This document shows positions 6,282 through 48,417 of a stretch of 51,194 nucleotides of DNA, piece by piece. The notes under the pieces were generated by a model. It made no database searches, was not told where the DNA came from, and saw only the letters and a list, made by a program, of their open reading frames with translations. Numbering within the stretch: the stretch's first letter is position 1; each line of letters opens with the position of its first letter. Made by a program: the position numbers and the translations under genes. Origin of the DNA: an uncultured Spirochaetota bacterium (lineage in GTDB: Bacteria > Spirochaetota > B62-G9 > DRHN01); NCBI GenBank assembly GCA_964460545.1, contig CAYWUT010000007.1:1-51194 (forward strand). The letters run 5' to 3'.

Positions 6282-7070
6282 TTATGGTAACGGATCTATA
6301 TCCGTGATGAGGATTAGCCGACCGCGCGGCCGGACGAGCCGCGCCGGAAATGACGGTTCGAGCTCGGCGGGATTGAGCAGCCTTTTGAGCACCTCCGATT
6401 TGGATTCACCGGATACGAGAAATATGACCATGCGCGCCGCGTTGATGAGGGGAAGCGTGATGCTGACCCTGTTTTTTACCGGTGCGTAATCGGGGGCCGT
6501 TACGGGTATGAAAAACCGCCCGTCTTCCTCGGTGGGATTTCCCGGATAAAGCGAGGCCGTATGACCGTCATCTCCCACCCCGAGGAGGATGACGTCGAAT
6601 GCGGGATAGGGGAGGCCGCCGGTTTTCTCTCCTGTCCCGGGTTCTTGGTCCACTGACGGGTTCCGGTCTGAAAAAAAAGTCCTGATGGTTTCTTCGTATG
6701 CCGCCGCGGCCGCACGGTTCGAGGAGAGCCCGGTCGGGACCGGGAAGATGTTTTCGTTTTTTATCGGGACCCGCGACAGCAGGAGGTCGAAAGCGGCAGA
6801 TGCATTGGACTTCGGATCGTCAAGCGGAACGCATCGTTCATCCCCCCAGAATATGGAAGTCCTGTCCCAGGGAAACCCCTCAGGATGTTCTGCGAGCTCC
6901 CGAAAGAGTATTTTCGGCGTACTGCCCCCTGAAAGCACGAGGGTGAAGGTACCGCGCCGCGCCACCGATTCGTTCGCGGCCTTTTCCATGATGCCCGCCG
7001 CGCGAGCGGCCATATCGCCGCTGCTGGTGCACGAAAAAACCTCGATGGGGTCCTTCCGTCCGTTACACAT
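6282..7070 (-). CDS. pgl: 6-phosphogluconolactonase
   Basis: [37 protein letters not shown]; ATG 7070 overlaps the zwf end by 8 bp. Confidence 0.93.
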
Positions 7071-8607
7071 ATATCCAGTCCCTCCCGTCCCTATCGAGCA
7101 GTTTCTCCGATTCCGCGGGGCCCCAGGACCCGGCAGGATAGGTGAGGATTCGCGCCGCGTTTTTATTTTCTTCGCTCTCCCAGCTCTCGAGTACCGGTGT
7201 GATGAGAGACCATGAGACCCGCATATCGTCGTGCCGTATGAAAAGGGTCTGGTCTCCAAGCATGGAATCGAGCAGGAGGCGCTCGTACGCCTCGGGGAGT
7301 CCTTCCGTGATTACGTCGCTGTAGTGAAAGTCCATTTCAAGGGTATCCATGCACAGTTTCGGGCCGGGATGCTTGGCCTGTATGGCGAGCGATATTCCCT
7401 CCTCGGGCTGAACCCTGAAGATAAGGATATTGGGATTCAGGTCGTCTGAGGTGAGCGGGCGAAACATGGAATGGGGTACGGGTTTGAAAGTTACGATAAT
7501 CTTGCTCGTTCTACGGGCCAGGCGCTTGCCCGCACGCAGGTAGAAGGGGACGCCCTGCCATCGCCAGTTATCCACCATGACACGGGCCGCGACGAATGTC
7601 TCGATCCTGGAATCCGGATTTACACCCTCCTCGTCCCGGTAACCGGGTACCGATTCGCCGTTTACCTTTCCGGTAACGTACTGCGCGCGGACGAGGTCTT
7701 CCGTACCGTCCCCGCCAAGCGGTCGCACTGCCCTGAGAAGCTTCACTTTCTCGTCGCGCACCCGGTCCGCGTCGAAGGAAATGGGATGTTCCATGGTTAC
7801 GAGGGAAAGCATCTGGAGCATGTGGTTCTGGAACATGTCTCGCAGAAGCCCGGCCTGCTCGAAGTAGCCGGCGCGATGGCCGACGCCGTCGGATTCGGCG
7901 ACCGTGATCTGGACATTGTCGATATACCTTCGGTTCCAGATCGGCTCGAATATGGCGTTCGCGAACCGGAAGAGGAGTATGTTCTGCACCGTGTCCTTGC
8001 CCAGGTAATGGTCAATCCTGTATATCTGCCTTTCCGAGAGGACCTCGTTGAGTGAGCGGTCGAGCTCCATTGCGCTTGTCAGATCCCTGCCGAAGGGTTT
8101 CTCAACGATCACGCGTGCCTCGATGAGGGGCCCCGAGTCGTCGATCGTGAGGCGGGAGTTTCCCAGCCCCTCAATGATCTTCAGGTTGACGCCCGGAGGG
8201 GTCGCGAGATAGAAGATGTGGTTCCTCTCTGGAAGGCAGCGTTTGTCGAGCGTTTTAAGACGAGACCCGATGTCCCTGAAGAGCGAGGGGTCGCCGTAGT
8301 CTCCTGAAACGTAGAAACAGCGGTCAATGAACGGTTTGAGCTCGGATTCGCCCGCGTTCTGAGATTTTATCAACGCCTCCCGCGCCCGCTCCCTGAAGGT
8401 TTCGTCGGTGAGCCTGCTTCTTGCGCAGCCGAGAATGTAGAACTTGCCGGGTAAAAGTTTTTTTCTATACAGGTTAAAGAGCGAGGGGATGAGCTTCCTG
8501 GAGGTAAGGTCCCCGGACGCGCCGAAAATGACGAATCCCGCGGGTTTGGGGATCTCCTCCACGCAGAAGGAGCCCCTGATTTTTACGGAGCCGTGCATGG
8601 GATCCAT
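7063..8607 (-). CDS. zwf: Glucose-6-phosphate 1-dehydrogenase
   Basis: [50 protein letters not shown]. Confidence 0.97.
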
Positions 8608-8629
8608 AGGAGTTCTCCGGAGGGATTGA

Positions 8630-9538
8630 TTACTCGTCAGCCGATCTCGTATCGTGACCGCCGAACTCTTTCCTGAGCGCAGCGAGCAGCCGGTCGGAGA
8701 AGAGATTGGGATTCCGGGATTGGAAGCGCTTGAACAGGGCATGGGCGATGGTGGTCGCGGGCACACCCGTTTCCACGGCCTGCTGAACCGTCCATCGTCC
8801 CTCGCCCGAGTCGTCGACGAAACCCCGTATCTTATTCAGACCCGGGTCATTCCGAAACGCCGTCTCCAGCAACTCGAGCAGCCAGGAGCGGATAACGCTC
8901 CCCTGGTTCCAGAGATGTGCGATCTTCTGATGATCGAGTGTCTCCTTATACGGTGAAGCGTCCAGTATCTCAAAACCTTCTCCGTACGCCTCCATGAGCG
9001 CGTACTCGATACCGTTGTGAACCATCTTGACGAAATGTCCCGCGCCTGAGGGGCCGCAGTAGAGGTAGCCGCCCTCGGGGGCGAGCGATTTGAACAGGGG
9101 CTCGACACGTTCGAAATCCTCTTTATTACCGCCCACCATGGTACAGTACCCGAGCTGAAGCCCCCATATTCCGCCCGAGATGCCGGCGTCCATGTAACGG
9201 ATGCCGATATGCTTCAATTCTAGCAACCGCCGCATATCGTCCTTGTAATAGGTGTTTCCGCCGTCTATGATAAGGTCTCCCTCGGTGAGGAAGGTGGAGA
9301 GCTTGCGTATGTACGTATCGGTTACCTCGCCGGCCGGAAGCATCACGAGCACGGTTCGGGGAAGATCGAGCTTCTCCACGAGCTCCTCCACCGATGAAGA
9401 GGGAACGGCGCCCTCCTTTGCCGCGGATTCGACCTTTTCCCCGGTACGGTTGTACACAACGACCGTATGCCCCCCCTGGAGGAGACGGCGGGTCATGTTG
9501 AACCCCATTCTGCCGAGACCGATGATTCCAATCTGCAT
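8630..9538 (-). CDS. gnd: 6-phosphogluconate dehydrogenase, decarboxylating (short type)
   Basis: [46 protein letters not shown]. Confidence 0.96.
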
Positions 9539-31077: not shown

Positions 31078-32559
31078 CTACTTGCGAACGAGGACCGCTA
31101 CGGTCCTGTTCTCTTCCATGAAATAGGTGCGTGCAACGCGCTGAATATCCTCCGGCGATATTTTTTTCATTCGATCTTTCCACTGGAGAATGTAACGCCA
31201 TGAACCCGCAGTCCCTTCATACTCGGCGATATGCCGCGCCATACCCTCGTTCGACTCGAGCGCACGTATGAACTGGGTTTCAATGAGCTTGTGTATCCTG
31301 GCAAGCTCCTTTTCCGTAACCGGTTCATTCTTCAGCCGTTCGAGCTCTCTATAAACGGCTTCTTCGACATCCTCCGCACGGGCGGGATGCCGGGGTGCGG
31401 CGGCGATGAGGAACAGGTTTTCTCCCCTGGAGCCCGGGTAACCGCCCGTACCATACGCGTAGAGCGCGATGCCCGATTGCACGATATTCTTGTGGAATCG
31501 GGAGGTCCTCCCGGCGGAGAGCAATCCCGAAATCATATCGAATATGTAATCGTCCTCATGACCGGACGCAGGTTTGTGATACCCGATCAAGACGGACGGC
31601 TCCGCGTCAAAGGCAACTTCGACCCGGCGTTCGGCCGTCTGTTCAGACACGGGCGGGGCTTCAATGGTACGTGCCGCCCGTTTCTCAATCGATCCGAAAT
31701 ACCGTTCAACGATCGCCATTCCGTCCCGCGGCGTAATATCCCCGACCATGATGATGACGATGTTTTCAGTTACGTAATGATCTTCGAAGAAGCGGCGGGC
31801 CTTCTTGACATTCAGTCCAAGGATGTCCCGCTCTGATCCGATAAGGGGATATCCGTAGGGGTGATCGGCGAATGCGGTTTGGAGAAAACGTTCCGACAGG
31901 AGACCGTGCGGATTGTTGTCCACACGCATCCTGCGTTCTTCAAATACCGCGTTTCTTTCGGTGTAGAATTCCCGGAGAACGTTGTTTTTCAGCCTGTCCG
32001 ACTCGAGCAGGGCCCAGAGCTCCACCTTGTTCGCGGGAAGTGAAACCGTATAGAGCGTATAATCACGGGAGGTGGAAGCGTTGAGTCCCCGCGCTCCATG
32101 TCTCGTATACAGGGATTCGTACTGGCCCGGAACAATGAGCCCGCGGTGCTCCTCCTGAAGAGAGGTCAGCGAGGCTTCCAGCCTGCCGATGAACTCCTCG
32201 TCTTGCCCCTCGTTCTTCAATCGTTCCGCGTCCAGTTTTTCCGTCACCCGTTCGATGCGCTCAAGGAGGGGCTTCTCCCTTTCATAATCCGATGTGCCGA
32301 TGGTTTTCGTTCCCTTGAACAGCATATGCTCCAGCATATGCGCCACACCCCTGCTCTCATCGTCTTCATCTATTCCTCCGGCCTTGATGAGTATGTTGAG
32401 GGCAACAGTTGGTATCGTATGCCGTTCAATTACAATAACCCTGATCCCGTTGTCGAGCTGCTGTTCTACAACCCGTTCTTCCAGGGATTGCGCGAAGATG
32501 AGCAGCGGGAAGAAAAAAATCAGTATGACGACCACCGGTATTCGAACCTTCATGATCAT
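31078..32559 (-). CDS. M16B zinc peptidase, catalytic subunit, exported
   Basis: Signal peptide; GVAHMLEHMLFKGT (HxxEH), NASTS.DYT.Y, EERRMR, HPYGYP..G; alternative ATG 32553. Confidence 0.9.
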   Translation of the reverse strand: MIMKVRIPVVVILIFFFPLLIFAQSLEERVVEQQLDNGIRVIVIERHTIPTVALNILIKAGGIDEDDESRGVAHMLEHMLFKGTKTIGTSDYEREKPLLERIERVTEKLDAERLKNEGQDEEFIGRLEASLTSLQEEHRGLIVPGQYESLYTRHGARGLNASTSRDYTLYTVSLPANKVELWALLESDRLKNNVLREFYTERNAVFEERRMRVDNNPHGLLSERFLQTAFADHPYGYPLIGSERDILGLNVKKARRFFEDHYVTENIVIIMVGDITPRDGMAIVERYFGSIEKRAARTIEAPPVSEQTAERRVEVAFDAEPSVLIGYHKPASGHEDDYIFDMISGLLSAGRTSRFHKNIVQSGIALYAYGTGGYPGSRGENLFLIAAAPRHPARAEDVEEAVYRELERLKNEPVTEKELARIHKLIETQFIRALESNEGMARHIAEYEGTAGSWRYILQWKDRMKKISPEDIQRVARTYFMEENRTVAVLVRK

Positions 32560-32689
32560 TAACTTAGTCTCTTGTCCGTTGTCGGTCTACCGCAAAAGGC
32601 CGTTCACCGTTACCTGTGAATGGTGTTTCCAGACCTTTTTCCTTCTATTATTATTTCAGGGAACAATTTATATGAAGAGGATGATTTTC

Positions 32690-33769
32690 ATGGAAAGATT
32701 AAACCACCGGGAAAACCTCCTGCGAATGATCAGGAAGAACGGGGGCGGATGGATACCCTTCACCCTCGATATTGGTGCTATCCCGGGGTTTACACAACCG
32801 GTATTCAGACGGTTCACCAGCGAAACCGGATCGGAAAGACCCGACGAGTACTTCGATTACGATTTCAGAACCTTTTCACTCAGGGGAAGGTTCGGCGGGA
32901 AAAATCCGCGGTCGCTGTACGATGATCTTCCCGAAGACACGGTATTCGATGAGTGGGGAATCGGGCACTGGGCCGGCGGTGCGGAAGGGACGTACGAGCG
33001 GATGTACGCGCCCTTTGCCGGAATCGATAGTCCCGACAGGATCGATCGGCATCCCGTTCCCGTAATCGAGGTTCCAGAGGATGCAAAGAGGATCGAATCG
33101 TACAGGAGCAGGGGATATCCCGTTTTCGGTTATGCGGGAAGTATATACGAGTGGTCGTGGTGGCTCAGGGGAATGGAACGGTTCATGGAGGATTTGATAA
33201 TCCGGCCGAAACTCGCGGATACCGTGGTACGCCTCGTTTCCGTGTATGTCGAAAAGCTTGCATTAAAATCGGCCGAAGCCGGAATAGACGTGCTCTGTTT
33301 TTACGATGATGTGGGCATGCAGACAGGTCTGCAGATTTCACCCGTACTCTGGCGGAGTTTCATCAAACCGCGATGGGTCAGTATAATAAAAAAGGTACGG
33401 TCCGAATATCCCGGGATCCTCTTTTTCCTTCACAGCTGCGGGAATGTGACTGAGATAGTGGGCGATATCGTGGAAGCGGGATTTCACATTCTTCACCCCG
33501 TTCAGCCTGAGTGCATGGATTTCGGACAGGTATGGGAGCGGTATGGCGAGAATATCGTTCTCTGCGGTACGGTGAGCGCTCAGCGAACCTTCTCCTTCGG
33601 GTCGCCCGACGATGTGCGTCAGGAGCTCCGGTATTACAGGGAGCTCTGCGGCCCGGACAAGCGCTGTATACTCTGTCCGTCGAACATGATACAGCCTGAA
33701 ACGCCCTGGGAGAACGTACTCGCCTTTGTGGAGGAAGCCCGGAAGGAAAGAGCGCGGAACCAGGGGTGA
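32690..33769 (+). CDS. URO-D/MtaA-like fold protein (not canonical HemE)
   Basis: DEWG, WWLRGMERF, FYDDVG.Q, LHSCGN, LHPVQPECMD, QPETPWEN; lacks the HemE RQAGR motif; GAGGA RBS before ATG 32690. Confidence 0.75.
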   Translation: MERLNHRENLLRMIRKNGGGWIPFTLDIGAIPGFTQPVFRRFTSETGSERPDEYFDYDFRTFSLRGRFGGKNPRSLYDDLPEDTVFDEWGIGHWAGGAEGTYERMYAPFAGIDSPDRIDRHPVPVIEVPEDAKRIESYRSRGYPVFGYAGSIYEWSWWLRGMERFMEDLIIRPKLADTVVRLVSVYVEKLALKSAEAGIDVLCFYDDVGMQTGLQISPVLWRSFIKPRWVSIIKKVRSEYPGILFFLHSCGNVTEIVGDIVEAGFHILHPVQPECMDFGQVWERYGENIVLCGTVSAQRTFSFGSPDDVRQELRYYRELCGPDKRCILCPSNMIQPETPWENVLAFVEEARKERARNQG

Positions 33770-33807
33770 CAGTTCCCGGAGGAACTGTCACAAAAGGAAC
33801 TGTCACC
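33765..33807. repeat. Dispersed GTGACAGTTCC REP-like element, copy 2 (hairpin)
   Basis: GTGACAGTTCC-CGGA-GGAACTGTCAC 11-bp stem plus a further GGAACTGTCACC unit; spans the gap between two convergent genes. Confidence 0.85.
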
Positions 33808-35293
33808 TTTCGAAGAGGCGGGTGTAGTAGGAGTCGTATCTGAGGCGGACTTTTTCGTACACCCCATGAACAGCGAGGTCCGGCTCGACCCGGGACGATA
33901 TTCTTACATATGGCTCCAGATCTTCCATGCTCCCGGCGATTCCGAGCGCGAGCAGTCCGATGAGAACCGCTCCCCATGCGGCCGGTTCATTCACCTCGGG
34001 TATGAGGAGGTGCTGGCCGAAGAAATCCGCGAGGAGCTGCAGCCAGGCGGGCGATTTGAGTATGCCGCCCGTTACCACGCATTCGGAGCGGGCGTCAGGT
34101 TCGAGCATCATATAGATGGTATGGAGCCGGTAGGCTATTCCTTCCATCAACGCCTTGACAATATGACTGCGTCCGTGAGAGAGCGATAATCCGGCAAGCG
34201 CGGTTTGCGCTGACGGATTGTTGTGCGGAGCGCGTTCGCCGCTCATAAAGGGAAAGAAGACGAGGCCCTCGGCTCCGGGGGGAATGGACCTCGTCGATGC
34301 GATTCTATCGAATATGGTTTCTCCTTCGTCCCGGAGAACGGCGTCCGCGAGCCACTGCATTACGTTGCCGGCGTCATGCGCGACTCCGCCGCCGAGCCAT
34401 TTTCCTTCCGCCATGTAGTAGCACCACGCCTCCGTATCCGGCTGCACTGAAGCGGCAGGAATGAGTTTTCTCAATGCTCCGCTCGTTCCGACCGTTAAGC
34501 TCATTTTCCCCGGATCCAGCCCCGCGCTTCCCAGGTGGGCCAGCGGACCGTCGGCACCACCCGCGATACCGGGTGTTCCGGCAATGAGACCCGTTTTATC
34601 CGCATACTCACGCCGCAAACCGCCGACTTCGCACGTCGTCTCCACAACCTCCGAGAAATTATTTTTCCTGAGACCGACTGTCTTCAATAGGTCCTCGTCC
34701 CAGTCCAGGGTGTGGAGATTCCAGACGCCCGTTCCCGAGGCTGTCGACCGGTCCACCAGGCAGGTGCTGAAAAGCCGGTTCAGAACGTATTCCTTTATGG
34801 ATATAAATAACCGGGCCTTCTTGTATATGTCCGGCCGCTTTTCCCTGTACCAGAGCAGTCTCGGGAGGAAATAGAGGGGATTGAGCGCGCATCCCGTTCT
34901 GTTACGAGCTTCCTCGCGGTCGAGCATCAGCGCGAGCCGGGCCGTCTGTTCTTCGCTTCGCCTGTCCGACCAGATCATTGCCCTGTCGAGGAGTCCGCCT
35001 GAACCGTCCACCGGTACGATGCTGTGGAGTACGCCGCAGAATACGAGCGCTTCGACGGAAGCGGGGTCCGGGCGGTATCGGGAAACGAGGGATGATAGAA
35101 CCGATACAGCTGCCTCCAGTATCTCGTCGGGATCCTGGACCGATGATCCCGACGACGGGAAAAGACAGGTGTGCGGGCTCGATGCGGAGCCCAGGATTTT
35201 CCCCCGTCCTCCCGCATTCCCGGTCTCGTAGAGCAGACCCTTGGTCGATGTCGTACCCATGTCGAGCGCAACTATGTATTTTTTCGAAACCAT
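33803..35293 (-). CDS. gntK: FGGY-family sugar-acid kinase, gluconokinase-like
   Basis: DMGTTSTK, WSDRRS, GGADGPLAHLG, GTSGA.R, PFMSGERAP, EGIAY; exact substrate inferred. Confidence 0.75.
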   Translation of the reverse strand: MVSKKYIVALDMGTTSTKGLLYETGNAGGRGKILGSASSPHTCLFPSSGSSVQDPDEILEAAVSVLSSLVSRYRPDPASVEALVFCGVLHSIVPVDGSGGLLDRAMIWSDRRSEEQTARLALMLDREEARNRTGCALNPLYFLPRLLWYREKRPDIYKKARLFISIKEYVLNRLFSTCLVDRSTASGTGVWNLHTLDWDEDLLKTVGLRKNNFSEVVETTCEVGGLRREYADKTGLIAGTPGIAGGADGPLAHLGSAGLDPGKMSLTVGTSGALRKLIPAASVQPDTEAWCYYMAEGKWLGGGVAHDAGNVMQWLADAVLRDEGETIFDRIASTRSIPPGAEGLVFFPFMSGERAPHNNPSAQTALAGLSLSHGRSHIVKALMEGIAYRLHTIYMMLEPDARSECVVTGGILKSPAWLQLLADFFGQHLLIPEVNEPAAWGAVLIGLLALGIAGSMEDLEPYVRISSRVEPDLAVHGVYEKVRLRYDSYYTRLFER

Positions 35294-35443
35294 CACGAGC
35301 AGAAGGTATACCGGCGGTGGTTTTTGCTCAAGCATTTTCTCGGTCCGCATTCTGCGCCTGCCGATCGTATATTTACCGGACCGGCAAAGGTAATTTTCTT
35401 GACTGTCGCGGCTCAAAGCGTTAAAAGGTGAAGGGGGGTAATC

Positions 35444-36700
35444 ATGGGAGCGGGCAGGTTAAATCTTCAGAGGGGATTGAGCGACCTGGAGATTCGGGAG
35501 GTACTGGAGGAAGGGCTTCCTCCGGAACGGTTCCGGAACAAAAGGGTGCTCGTGCTAACGCCCGATCAAACGAGAACGGCTCCGCTCCCCCGAATGGTTC
35601 GACTCCTTATCGAGCTCGCGGCGCAGGCTTCCCGCCTCGACTTCATGGTCGCTCTCGGCACGCACAGGCCCTTACGGCGGCGGGAGATTCAAAGCCTCTA
35701 CGGGATCGATGAAAACGATGGGGCTTTATCCGGAAAAACCGCTTTCTTCAACCACAGGTGGGACAGGCCGGGGACGCTCGTCAGTACAGGCGTGATCGAC
35801 GGATCTAAAATAGCCGGGCTGACCGGCGGTGTTTTCCGGGACCCCATGGATATCACCATAAACCGGAAAGTGTTTGATTACGATCTCCTCCTGATACTCG
35901 GGCCCGTATTTCCCCATGAGGTCGCGGGCTTCTCGGGCGGCAATAAATACCTCTTCCCCGGTATCTCGGGGGGTGATTTTCTCCATCGGTTTCACTGGCT
36001 GGGTGCGGTCATAACGAGTTGGAACATCATTGGAATAAAAAACACGCCTGTCAGGAAGCTCATCGACGAAGCTGCGCGCATGGTGGATGTCGAGCGGCTG
36101 TGCGCCGCCATGGTCGTGACGCCTGAAAACGAGCTCGCGGGTCTTTTCACGGGTGAGACGGCGTATGCCTGGTCGGAAGCGGCGGACCTTTCCTCCTCGC
36201 TCCACATCGTACGGAAGCGAAAGCCCTTTCACACCGTGCTCGCCAGGGCGTCGGAAAACTACGACGAGCTCTGGACCGCGGGAAAGGCGATGTACAAGCT
36301 CGAACCCGTTGTTGAAGACGGCGGCACGCTCATCATATACGGAAAACACATACATGCGATTTCGCATACCTGGGGGAGATACATCGAAGAAACGGGGTAT
36401 CACGTGCGTGATTATTTTACGGGGAGATTGAACGAGTTCACCGGCGTTCCCCTGGGAGTTCTCGCCCACCTCAGCCATGTCAAGGGGCTGGGGACCTATG
36501 AAAACGGTGTGGAGCGGCCCCGAATCAACGTGGTCCTGGCCACCTCGATCACGGAGGAGCGGTGCAGGCACGTGAATCTCGGTTACCTCGATCCCGATAA
36601 AGTCAGGATCGAGGATTACCGGGGCAGGGAAAGCGAAGGAGTGCTCCTGGTCGATGGGGCGGGCGAGGTCCTCTACCGGCTCGAAGAGACCGCTGAATAA
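35444..36700 (+). CDS. LarA-family nickel-pincer 2-hydroxyacid racemase/epimerase
   Basis: TPDQTRT, LGTHR, NH, PHEVAGFSGGNK (His, Lys at +10) and His 16 residues after the Lys, matching the spacing of L. plantarum LarA H174/K184/H200; WTAGK. Confidence 0.82.
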   Translation: MGAGRLNLQRGLSDLEIREVLEEGLPPERFRNKRVLVLTPDQTRTAPLPRMVRLLIELAAQASRLDFMVALGTHRPLRRREIQSLYGIDENDGALSGKTAFFNHRWDRPGTLVSTGVIDGSKIAGLTGGVFRDPMDITINRKVFDYDLLLILGPVFPHEVAGFSGGNKYLFPGISGGDFLHRFHWLGAVITSWNIIGIKNTPVRKLIDEAARMVDVERLCAAMVVTPENELAGLFTGETAYAWSEAADLSSSLHIVRKRKPFHTVLARASENYDELWTAGKAMYKLEPVVEDGGTLIIYGKHIHAISHTWGRYIEETGYHVRDYFTGRLNEFTGVPLGVLAHLSHVKGLGTYENGVERPRINVVLATSITEERCRHVNLGYLDPDKVRIEDYRGRESEGVLLVDGAGEVLYRLEETAE

Positions 36701-36795
36701 CGGCATCCTGTCAATTTACCGTTTTCATGACCCGAACGGCCGGTATCCCGCATCCACCCGCGGAGCCGGATGTATTTCCTGAAAGGAGAGGGACC

Positions 36796-37509
36796 ATGAA
36801 CATCGTCGGATTTACGGACATACACGGAAGAACGGAAAAATTAATAAACGCGGAATCCGCGATCCGCGAAGCCGATCTCGTGCTCCTCTCCGGCGATATA
36901 ACGCATTTCGGACATTCCGAGGATGCCGGGCTCGTTATAGCTGAAATCAGGCGTCTGGCAAACGGTTCGGCCGGAATAGGGGCGGTTCACGGTAATTGCG
37001 ACTATCCGGCAGTGGAATCTTACCTCGTGGGTGAGGGCCTGAGCCTGAGCGGGAGATGCCTGAACGCGGGCGAATACGCCCTCATCGGGGCCGGAGGCTC
37101 TTTACCCGCGCCGGGCTCTACACCCAATGAATACTCGGAGGATGAGCTCGGTATGCTCCTGGCCTGCGGCCTGTCGGGTGTCCGCTCGGGAAGCCGTATC
37201 ATCATGGTCTCTCATCAGCCCCCGCGGGATACGGCGCTCGACAGGGTGGGAAGGAGACACGTGGGGAGCAGAGCGGTCCGGGATTTTATTTTAAAAAACA
37301 GGCCGCTTCTCTGTTTCTGCGGCCATATACACGAGAGCATGGGGATCGACGAGATCGGAGATACCGTGCTCGTTAATCCGGGTCCCCTGCCCGGAGGCGG
37401 GTACGCCCTCGCGCAACTCGGCGACGGGGACCTGTCCGTGAAAATAATACAGTCGGGCGCCGAAGTCGCGCGCCTTGACAAGGCTATACGAAAAACCGGA
37501 GGAGTATGA
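36796..37509 (+). CDS. Calcineurin-like metallophosphoesterase
   Basis: DIHG, GD, GNCD, HQPP, GHIHE, VNPG; GGAG RBS. Confidence 0.88.
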   Translation: MNIVGFTDIHGRTEKLINAESAIREADLVLLSGDITHFGHSEDAGLVIAEIRRLANGSAGIGAVHGNCDYPAVESYLVGEGLSLSGRCLNAGEYALIGAGGSLPAPGSTPNEYSEDELGMLLACGLSGVRSGSRIIMVSHQPPRDTALDRVGRRHVGSRAVRDFILKNRPLLCFCGHIHESMGIDEIGDTVLVNPGPLPGGGYALAQLGDGDLSVKIIQSGAEVARLDKAIRKTGGV

Positions 37510-46466: not shown

Positions 46467-46925
46467 ATGGACAGGAACGATGAAATACTGTGGGCGGAAC
46501 TGACAAAGATCACGGATCCGCTTGGTGTAATTATCGTCGAGATCTCGGTCGGGAAGGGAAAGAACGGTCTCAATATCAGAATTATAGTCGACAAGGAGGG
46601 GGGAATACAGATCGGCGATCTGGAACATATAACCCGTCTCTTGAACGACAGGCTTTCAGTGCTCGAAATATTGGATGAAAATGATTATTCGCTTCAGGTT
46701 TCCTCCCCCGGTATATATCGTGAGTTCAAAAGCAAAGAGGAATACGGTCTCTTTAAATCCCGAAAAGTGAAGGTCATACTGAGAGAACCGCTGGATAACA
46801 TGCGGGACTCTGTCGTGACGGGTATACTGAGAGGGATGGAAGATGATGACGTTACAATTGAAACCGGAGGAAGAACCGTGAGCATACCCTTTGACAAAAT
46901 CGTTAAAACGAAGCTCGACGGATAG
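46467..46925 (+). CDS. rimP: Ribosome maturation factor RimP
   Basis: IRIIVDKEGGIQIGD, YSLQVSSPGIYR; position before nusA. Confidence 0.92.
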   Translation: MDRNDEILWAELTKITDPLGVIIVEISVGKGKNGLNIRIIVDKEGGIQIGDLEHITRLLNDRLSVLEILDENDYSLQVSSPGIYREFKSKEEYGLFKSRKVKVILREPLDNMRDSVVTGILRGMEDDDVTIETGGRTVSIPFDKIVKTKLDG

Positions 46926-46935
46926 GGAGGAGGGG

Positions 46936-48417
46936 ATGACGAACGAGTTAAGTGAGGCGGTAAAACAGCTCGTTGCCGATAAAGGTATTTCCGAGGAACT
47001 GATCCTCAAAACCATCGAGATGGCTCTTCTTGCCGCGTATAAGAAGAAATTCGGAACAACCGCAAACGCGGAAACCTACATAGACGAAGAAAACGACATC
47101 GTCAAGATATACTCAAAAAAGGGAATCGTGGAAGCGGTTGAAAACCCTGTCTTCGAGATTTCGCTGGGTGAAGCCCAGAAGCTCCATTCCGGTGCCGAGA
47201 TGGGAGACGAGCTTCTCATCGAACTGAAACCCGAGGATTTCGGGAGAATCGCGGCGCAAACCGCAAAGCAGGTGGTAAGGCAGAGGCTCAAGGAGATCGA
47301 AAAGGACGTCGTCTACAACGAGTTCAAGCAGCGCGAAGGAGAGATGATCGTCGGTTACTATCAGAGGGAGCGTAACGGCACGATTTACGTCAATCTCGGA
47401 CGGACGGAAGGTATCATGCCGAGAAGCCAGCAGTCTCCCCGCGAACATTACGCGGTAGGAGACAGAATCAAGGCGCTCCTGCTCGAGGTGAGAAAGGGTC
47501 CCAAGGGCCCGCAGATCATTCTTTCGAGAAGTCATCCGAGCTTCGTGAAGAAAACGTTCGAGCTTGAAATTCCGGAGCTTGCGGACGGCACCATCGCGAT
47601 TAAGAATATTGTGCGTGATCCGGGATACCGGACAAAAGTGGCGGTTTATTCTCCGCGCGACGAGATCGACCCTGTCGGTGCATGCGTTGGTATGAAGGGT
47701 ATAAGGATACAGGCGATCGTCGGGGAGCTGGAAGGCGAGAAGATAGACATCGTCAAGTGGGACCAGGACTTGAGGCGCTACATCGAGAACTCGATGAATC
47801 CCGTCAAGATCAGCAAGATCATCATCACCGATGAGGAGAGCAATGAAGCTCTCGTTGTGGTACACGATTCTCAGCTCTCAATAGCGATCGGCAGGCAGGG
47901 ACAGAACATTCGTCTGGTATCAAAGCTTGTGGGAATGAAGCTCGATGTCATGCCGGAGAGTGAATTCGAGACCTCGGAATATGCGGATTACGTGCGCAAG
48001 GCGGCGAACGAACTTTTCGGCGGGGAAGAAGAGGAAGCCGAGGTCGTCACCCTGAGCGATATACCGGGAATAGACGACGAGACGCTGGAAGTCCTGCAGG
48101 GTGCAGGCCTGAATAATATTGAGGATATCATAGACAAGGATGAGAAGGAGCTTGCCTCCATAGAGGGTATGACTCCGGAACTGACGAAAAAACTGCTCAG
48201 TACGCTCTCGGAAAATGTTGAGGTCGTGGAAGAGGAGTTTGTTAAAAAGGAGGCGGCGGCTGGAGAAGAGGAAGGCGCCGTTGATGAGGAGGTCTATGAG
48301 TGCCCGAACTGCGGAGCAAGGATCACGGAGGATATGGACAAGTGCGAGAGCTGCGGTGTGGAGCTCGTCTTCAAGGAAGAGGAAGAAGAAATAGATGATG
48401 ATGGTGAAGAAGAGTAG
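46936..48417 (+). CDS. nusA: Transcription termination/antitermination factor NusA with C-terminal HhH-like domain, zinc ribbon and acidic tail
   Basis: FGRIAAQTAKQV, LSRSHP, RDPGYRTKVAV, DPVGACVGMKG.R, AIGRQGQNIRL; C-terminal CPNC...CESC. Confidence 0.97.
   Translation: MTNELSEAVKQLVADKGISEELILKTIEMALLAAYKKKFGTTANAETYIDEENDIVKIYSKKGIVEAVENPVFEISLGEAQKLHSGAEMGDELLIELKPEDFGRIAAQTAKQVVRQRLKEIEKDVVYNEFKQREGEMIVGYYQRERNGTIYVNLGRTEGIMPRSQQSPREHYAVGDRIKALLLEVRKGPKGPQIILSRSHPSFVKKTFELEIPELADGTIAIKNIVRDPGYRTKVAVYSPRDEIDPVGACVGMKGIRIQAIVGELEGEKIDIVKWDQDLRRYIENSMNPVKISKIIITDEESNEALVVVHDSQLSIAIGRQGQNIRLVSKLVGMKLDVMPESEFETSEYADYVRKAANELFGGEEEEAEVVTLSDIPGIDDETLEVLQGAGLNNIEDIIDKDEKELASIEGMTPELTKKLLSTLSENVEVVEEEFVKKEAAAGEEEGAVDEEVYECPNCGARITEDMDKCESCGVELVFKEEEEEIDDDGEEE

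Follow-up and report, generated by a model that had tools for sequence, protein, structure and literature searches.

Homologues of the lactate racemase LarA (LarAH) fall into groups, each defined by a 20-position signature (Desguin et al. 2020, PMC7583248), and the representatives of two of them, GntE1 (group 19) and GntE2 (group 20), both convert D-mannonate to D-gluconate in vitro, with published Km values of 120 mM (for mannonate) and 17 mM, respectively (PMC7583248). GntE2 is TM0442 of Thermotoga maritima, solved as Protein Data Bank (PDB) entry 4NAR and shown to be a D-gluconate 2-epimerase dependent on the nickel-pincer nucleotide (NPN); its proposed role is mannonate entry into the pentose phosphate pathway, and of the group 20 loci 100% encode a short-chain dehydrogenase/reductase (SDR) and 86% a kinase of COG1070 (FGGY) (PMC7583248). 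The route from mannonate via gluconate to 6-phosphogluconate is already known from T. maritima and from the papers on the LarA superfamily. Here we analyze a 51,194-nucleotide stretch of DNA from an uncultured Spirochaetota bacterium (assembly GCA_964460545.1, contig CAYWUT010000007.1, positions 1 to 51,194; hereafter the window), in which a LarA homologue with a GntE1-type signature is encoded divergently from a predicted gluconokinase of the FGGY family. The source genome (G000) comprises 3.4 Mb in 205 contigs and is 91% complete.

The epimerase-kinase pair

The following features make up the pair:

35444-36700, + strand: LarA homologue, predicted D-mannonate/D-gluconate 2-epimerase (LarAH group 19, GntE1-type), 418 aa, Pfam Lar_N
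33803-35293, - strand: FGGY sugar kinase, predicted gluconokinase, 496 aa from ATG 35293, FGGY_N and FGGY_C
35294-35443, no strand: intergenic region between the divergent genes, 93-150 bp according to where the kinase begins

The ATG of the LarA homologue is preceded by a strong GGTGAAGGGGGG ribosome-binding site, and a protein record identical to it is likewise 418 aa long (P0003). The maximal open reading frame (ORF) of the kinase covers 33803-35416 on the minus strand, with the FGGY domain beginning at residue 47 and with alternatives to the start at 35293 available at 35335, 35350 and 35416. We favor ATG 35293 because the resulting length matches that of the homologues (490-500 aa), which leaves a gap of 150 bp, in agreement with the shared divergent region of about that size beside a GntK-like kinase described in an earlier note on this DNA; the recorded 515-aa product (P0123) begins at 35350 and reduces the gap to 93 bp. 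A simple scan of the divergent region revealed no sigma-70-like site and weak inverted repeats only, and upon alignment with the corresponding regions of two relatives the repeats were not conserved and no shared operator or promoter was found.

Fold, active site and group assignment of the epimerase

The LarA homologue matches Pfam PF09861 (Lar_N) with 71 bits (cut-off 23.3), and among PDB entries the one closest to it in sequence is 4NAR (E 2e-60, residues 17-415), followed by the LarA and Mar2 structures at E values of 1e-11 to 1e-5. An AlphaFold model of the protein (predicted local distance difference test score, pLDDT, 88.5) superimposes on 4NAR with a template-modelling (TM) score of 0.84 and ~30% identity in the structural alignment, vs TM scores of 0.6-0.72 and 16-20% identity for the lactate/malate racemases, and its top 13 PDB fold matches are all LarA-family structures. 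Residue equivalences were taken from HMMER alignments to 4NAR and LarA and from an 84-sequence alignment. The catalytic residues are present as D41, H74, H158 and K281 (D72, H108, H174 and K298 in LarA), as are the NPN-binding R44, the tethering K168 and the nickel ligand H184 (R75, K184 and H200), and the intervals H158-K168 and K168-H184 measure 10 and 16 residues, identical to LarA and exactly as the earlier note had read from the histidine, the lysine and the nickel-ligand histidine. The D, H, H and K catalytic positions are occupied accordingly in essentially all of 83 orthologues, one partial or broken copy reading X at the first two signature positions. Conservation in these orthologues reaches 90% or more at 105 columns, of which the window protein retains 103; the exceptions are K301, where the others have Pro, and L343, which is Ser in 76 of the 83. 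With only two such columns differing, the gene is under constraint. The protein is assigned to the LarA superfamily of NPN-dependent 2-hydroxyacid racemases and epimerases.

At the 20 signature positions the protein reads DRHHEVKHVWTGKGLALSHK, which matches the group 19 signature DRHHEVKHVW[TV][AG]KG[LI]ASTHR at 17-18 of 20 positions and deviates at L343, S344 and K347. The substrate region comprises the loop residues E159-V160, W277 and G280-K281 in α11, and G338-L340-A341 in α14, where the motif is G-L-A-x-x-H-K; these residues follow the pattern of groups 18, 19 and 20 (PMC7583248), the substrate region of groups 19 and 20 being marked by an E-V/S loop, the α11 Trp and a small or alanine-rich α14. 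The published entries continue from the loop onwards as E-V-K-H-V-W-L-N-K-S/G-A-A-L-I-H-S in group 18, as E-S-K-H-A-W-T-G-K-N-A-A-V-I-N-R in group 20 (TM0442), and as E-V-K-H-V-W-T/V-A/G-K-G-L/I-A-S-T-H-R in the group 19 proteins of Actinoplanes, C. glutamicum (GntE1), Planctopirus and Rubinisphaera (PMC7583248). The commonest signatures among the 83 collected orthologues, DRHHEVKHVW[VT]GKGLASTHR, are those of group 19, and the window protein has in common with the group 19 sequences in the supplement to PMC7583248 long motifs around the catalytic His loop, the WxxGK helix and the AHSTHVRG helix.

Relative to GntE1 and its group, the window protein thus carries the same 20-residue signature save for three α14 positions (S-T and R in the group, L343-S344 and K347 here), and the group is listed with uronate-linked gene context (PMC7583248), whereas the window protein comes from an uncultured spirochaete and has an FGGY kinase as its sole partner, UxaC and LarBCE being absent from its surroundings. 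It shares with GntE2, its best solved relative by sequence and by fold, the catalytic set and an FGGY sugar kinase gene, which adjoins that of GntE2 in T. maritima; it differs from GntE2 in the loop (E-V instead of E-S), in α14 (G-L-A-L-S-H-K instead of N-A-A-V-I-N-R) and in gene context, the Thermotoga cluster being complete, with a regulator, UxaE and a reductase, and that of the window reduced. Group 18, described by NCBIfam model NF052594 as a nickel-dependent putative hexonate epimerase, has the E-V loop, the α11 Trp and a group context of SDR, Gnd and UxaC, but W-L-N-K in α11 where the window protein has W-T-G-K. NF052594 is the best NCBIfam match of the window protein, at 161.6 bits (cut-off 500); on the same model five orthologues, taken from relatives as well as from other phyla, reach only 166-180 bits. 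The NCBI-named members of the subfamily found here carry only the label lactate racemase domain-containing protein. Taken together, the signature and motif comparison, the 4NAR match and the NCBIfam scores point to a placement of the epimerase, with its group 19 (GntE1-type) signature, in the GntE clade, and by signature, structural relative and fold alike it does not fall with the lactate racemases. Residue L343 lies in the α14 region facing the substrate side chain, at the signature position to which LarA W358 aligns, and the S343L substitution could bear on specificity.

Group 22, whose context of SDR, TRAP, FGGY and UxaC genes made it a candidate, was rejected, as its signature lacks the equivalents of D72 and K298. 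The source genome encodes a second LarA homologue of 477 aa (C67:7984-9417; L001:694-2127, minus strand), for which the LarAH14/15/16 family of NCBIfam comes nearest (405 bits, cut-off 740).

Kinase specificity

The kinase contains both FGGY Pfam domains at full length (PF00370, model positions 1-245 of 245; PF02782, 30-197 of 198), as do the FGGY gluconokinases described by TIGR01314, from which it differs in scoring at half the model cut-off. Its best solved relative is the gluconate kinase 3GBT of Lactobacillus acidophilus, at 227 bits vs 150 for XylB, a margin of 77 bits. The three next-best FGGY paralogues of the genome, unlike the window kinase, all prefer XylB over 3GBT (328 vs 218, 214 vs 199 and 230 vs 208 bits), so that among the four top-scoring paralogues it alone has a gluconate kinase as best solved relative, which agrees with the gluconate-type assignment made earlier. 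Orthologues of the kinase, 46-52% identical, are divergent from LarAH in four family loci, and others adjoin or lie near LarAH in three other phyla; the subfamily occurs mostly in uncultured Spirochaetota and relatives, at 45-53% identity. We predict the kinase to be a gluconokinase because it is conserved beside LarAH, because small gluconokinases occupy the clusters of other lineages, and because 3GBT is its best solved relative.

The 3.4-Mb genome as a whole yields 27 matches to the FGGY gluconokinase model, of which ~25 are near-full-length paralogues and none exceeds the cut-off (examples are C47:12604-14100, C54:5390-6805, C42:3086-4594 and C18:27368-28876), an unusually large expansion of FGGY sugar kinases.

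Orthologous loci and reduction of the cluster

LarAH relatives occur in the genomes of at least 590 species, the best 80 of which (48-63% identical) span Spirochaetota, Desulfobacterota, Planctomycetota, Verrucomicrobiota and others. For 71 loci, ORFs within 6 kb of LarAH were called and clustered, and cluster representatives were annotated. The neighbors include SDR (28), Gnd (21), UxaC (14), UxaE (11), a pyrophosphate-dependent phosphofructokinase (PPi-PFK)-like protein (10), haloacid dehalogenase-like (HAD) proteins (10), a HisN-like inositol monophosphatase (9), small GntK (6), the tripartite ATP-independent periplasmic (TRAP) transporter components DctP (6) and DctM (6), a PdxB-like protein (6) and FGGY kinase (3). 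At least one uronate or gluconate gene lies near LarAH in 42 of the 71 loci, and Gnd is directly adjacent to it in 13. For the SDR next to LarAH the best-scoring model is D-mannonate oxidoreductase (258 bits, under the cut-off of 281), the small GntK exceeds the cut-off of TIGR01313 with 181 bits, and typical gene orders are SDR-LarAH-UxaC-GntK-Gnd and DctPQM-LarAH-UxaC-UxaE. The synteny comparison suggested in the earlier note thus came out in favor of its reading, with orthologues found beside mannonate oxidoreductase-like SDR, UxaC, UxaE, GntK and Gnd. As annotated, these neighborhoods fit the Thermotoga scheme, in which hexuronate is converted via fructuronate, mannonate, gluconate and 6-phosphogluconate to ribulose 5-phosphate, and since orthologues adjoin Gnd and gluconokinases, gluconate can be argued to be the physiological product of group 19. 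The association with uronate and gluconate catabolism holds for the orthologous group; of this context the window itself has kept the kinase alone.

An orthologue of LarAH was found in 16 of 16 family relatives searched, at 43-64% identity. Three genomes of genus g10 feature the order URO-D-like>, FGGY<, SDR>, LarAH>, (UxaE>), UxaC>, and in L112, the longest such locus, MoaA and MOSC stand upstream as in the window. The g5 locus L111 consists of a bare FGGY<, LarAH> pair, 60% and 50% identical to that of the window and flanked as there by MoaA, MOSC and both M16 peptidase genes. Because relatives keep a fuller cluster in the same syntenic frame, we read the window locus as a cut-down form of the complete uronate cluster. 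All 17 family genomes keep LarAH, but UxaC scores above its cut-off in only 5 of them and is absent from the two g5 genomes that are 94-96% complete. Two mannitol-dehydrogenase-family genes of the source genome were considered as UxuB and rejected, as they are MtlD-like and ~400 aa long.

Several further observations concern LarAH loci elsewhere. Within the family, the LarAH gene carries an in-frame stop in two genomes (TAA in G007:C1:3320736-3321782 and TGA in G011:C238:13318-14532), G007 having a separate N-terminal LarAH fragment elsewhere, and these stops are signs of gene decay in some lineages. In loci L116, L118, L119 and L126 (G005, G015, G003 and G008), SDR> and LarAH> are followed by a GntR/FCD regulator>, a tungsten-type aldehyde:ferredoxin oxidoreductase> and a distant FGGY kinase that is 25-28% identical to the window kinase; such loci could provide an anaerobic aldose-to-aldonate route feeding the epimerase. 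Outside the family, a PPi-PFK-like gene (NF010675, 367 bits) lies less than 6 kb from LarAH in L025, L032, L045, L049, L057, L082 and L088-L091, ten loci of which nine contain Gnd, seven a HAD hydrolase and none a small GntK or FGGY kinase, a mutual exclusion that could reflect replacement of gluconokinase by a PFK-family enzyme. In nine Planctomycetota loci (L041, L046, L054, L055, L058, L063, L067, L072 and L081) a HisN-like inositol-monophosphatase-family gene (TIGR02067, 261 bits, just below the cut-off) directly follows LarAH, with no uronate or gluconate genes within 6 kb.

Genes for the NPN cofactor

As noted earlier, none of larB, larC and larE lies within the window. All three, whose absence from the genome would have refuted the reading of the earlier note, are encoded elsewhere in the genome: larC on C118 (396 bits), larE on C121 (212 bits, cut-off 150), and larB in two pieces at contig ends, C140:6626-6931 and C118:10055-10482 (87 and 174 bits). 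Model positions 1-102 of larB run into the end of C140, and positions 99-207 lie beside larC near the end of C118; no exact overlap joins the two contig ends, and the LarB reading is lost over the last ~100 bases of C118. The split is probably an assembly break, the alternative being a real break in the gene.

Proposed function and its alternatives

We propose that the pair consists of a mannonate/gluconate 2-epimerase and a gluconokinase, a reading to which we assign a probability of about 0.62 and for which substrate, direction, kinase specificity and expression are all matters that we infer. In such a scheme K168 would tether the NPN cofactor and H184 would ligate its nickel, H74 and H158 would serve as acid/base histidines, and C2 would be inverted via a 2-keto intermediate with the hydride parked on the cofactor, interconverting D-mannonate and D-gluconate. 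The divergent FGGY kinase would phosphorylate gluconate to 6-phosphogluconate, and the unlinked Gnd, the sole Gnd match in the genome by tblastn, would decarboxylate the latter to ribulose 5-phosphate. The two-gene module is in this reading the remnant of an ancestral cluster that sister genera have kept (kinase<, SDR mannonate oxidoreductase>, LarAH>, UxaE>, UxaC>), and from the loss of the mannonate-forming genes of that cluster it would follow that the pair acts on imported mannonate or gluconate, or on a supply from an enzyme so far unrecognised. The entry route from mannonate via gluconate to 6-phosphogluconate, as put forward in the earlier note, is supported in kind, whereas the enzyme that would form mannonate was not found in the genome and the entry substrate is one that we infer.

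A number of observations weigh against this proposal, and several of them favor the alternative that C2 epimerisation takes place on a different hexonate or pentonate pair, or on an aldarate (such as glucarate/mannarate), and that the FGGY kinase phosphorylates that product instead of gluconate. GntE1 is the only group 19 enzyme assayed, and its discoverers, in view of the Km of 120 mM, doubt that mannonate is its native substrate and propose another (PMC7583248). No NCBIfam equivalog covers the epimerase subfamily, and the S343L substitution falls on a substrate-facing signature position of the α14 pocket region. The kinase scores 324 bits on TIGR01314 (gntK_FGGY), half of the 648.55 cut-off, and 290 bits on the XylB model, also under cut-off; because the three paralogues on C47, C54 and C42 score nearly the same as the window kinase on TIGR01314 (~312), this hidden Markov model does not discriminate between kinases here, and the ~25 FGGY paralogues have no specificity assigned. 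In the 91%-complete source genome UxaC, UxaE, UxuA, GntP, small GntK and a UxuB-type reductase were not found, nor was an orthologue of the cluster SDR (best match 35-38% identical), and no source or transporter of mannonate was identified; nor was a mannonate-forming enzyme found in the sister genus g5, which is without UxaC, and the low incidence of UxaC across the family genomes, all of which keep LarAH, points the same way. Against a different substrate, the Gnd genes of 13 loci and the bona fide small gluconokinases beside orthologues make sense only with gluconate as product, no aldarate genes were seen in the neighborhoods, and the nearest solved relative of the window kinase is a gluconate kinase. 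We consider this alternative rather unlikely. Also doubtful is the idea that in the many UxaC-less family genomes the pair draws on an undescribed mannonate source, such as anaerobic aldose oxidation (an aldehyde:ferredoxin oxidoreductase gene accompanies the epimerase gene in some relatives), or serves another aldonate epimer pair with S343L tuning the pocket.

It is quite improbable that the pair is an evolutionary leftover with no physiological flux, decaying after the loss of SDR, UxaE and UxaC: the upstream genes have indeed been deleted from an otherwise syntenic locus, and LarAH is interrupted by in-frame stops in G007 and G011, but both ORFs of the window are intact, its LarAH keeps all active-site residues along with 103 of the 105 highly conserved columns, and the occurrence of the bare pair in g5 as well (60% and 50% identity) implies long retention under selection. 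An ordinary lactate racemase, suggested by homologue names in JGI and NCBI (nickel-dependent lactate racemase) and by the Lar_N match, would be a most implausible identity for the LarA homologue, which scores 81 bits on the NCBIfam LarA model against a cut-off of 460, has an E-V rather than an F-F loop together with GntE-type α11 and α14 residues, is only 16-20% identical to LarA structures, and has no lactate genes nearby.

Surrounding genes

The following genes were examined along with the pair:

36727-37509, + strand: metallophosphoesterase, Pfam Metallophos, 27 bp downstream of LarAH, no NCBIfam match
8630-9538, - strand: short-type 6-phosphogluconate dehydrogenase Gnd, 302 aa, NF007161 433 bits and TIGR00872 397 bits, both above cut-offs
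7063-8766, - strand: glucose-6-phosphate dehydrogenase zwf, maximal ORF, G6PD_N and G6PD_C, true start probably downstream of the gnd stop
6282-7259, - strand: 6-phosphogluconolactonase pgl, maximal ORF, Pfam Glucosamine_iso 221 bits

The gnd-zwf-pgl genes, which the earlier note had placed in the same window as the pair, are there by Pfam and NCBIfam, but lie 25 kb away with unrelated genes between, so that they are not linked to the pair and their proximity is incidental. Upstream of the pair are the molybdenum cofactor genes MoeA, MoaA and MOSC, two M16 peptidases and a URO-D/MtaA-like gene, and downstream are the metallophosphoesterase, AzlC, a zinc-ribbon protein, an FHA-propeller protein and a beta-helix protein. 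The metallophosphoesterase probably stands outside the epimerase-kinase module; a role as pathway phosphatase was rejected, as its homologue in the relative L114 is located two genes past LarAH and moves together with the downstream DZR/FHA-propeller/beta-helix block. The URO-D/MtaA-like methyltransferase-family gene (32294-33769, plus strand) is convergent with the kinase, a placement that the g10 relatives conserve, and another genus has a homologue of it at the far end of its LarAH locus (L116). Because the long ORF of the window gene extends into the M16 peptidase gene upstream, the real start is probably later. NusA (46891-48417, plus strand) is 76-82% identical to homologues from Spirochaetes/Spirochaetota metagenome-assembled genomes and ~51% identical to those of Treponema and Gracilinema, which places the host in an uncultured Spirochaetota lineage; the protein ends in a C-terminal zinc-ribbon (Pfam Zn_ribbon_3/DUF7129) common to most of the related Spirochaetota homologues listed.

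Implications

The locus is largely ordinary in that it adds a spirochaete example to a known system, GntE and GntK feeding Gnd, with no new principle; an orphan GntE-GntK module and the unusual S343L pocket substitution are its minor points of interest. Of wider consequence, the 71 orthologue neighborhoods bear on the physiological product of group 19, which its discoverers had left open over the 120 mM Km (PMC7583248), and the retention of the epimerase in family genomes with no recognised mannonate-forming enzyme shows that the sugar-acid pathways known from anaerobes are incomplete at this point. Should the pair in the UxaC-less genomes indeed draw on an undescribed mannonate source or act on another epimer pair, this would identify the uncertain native substrate of LarAH group 19.

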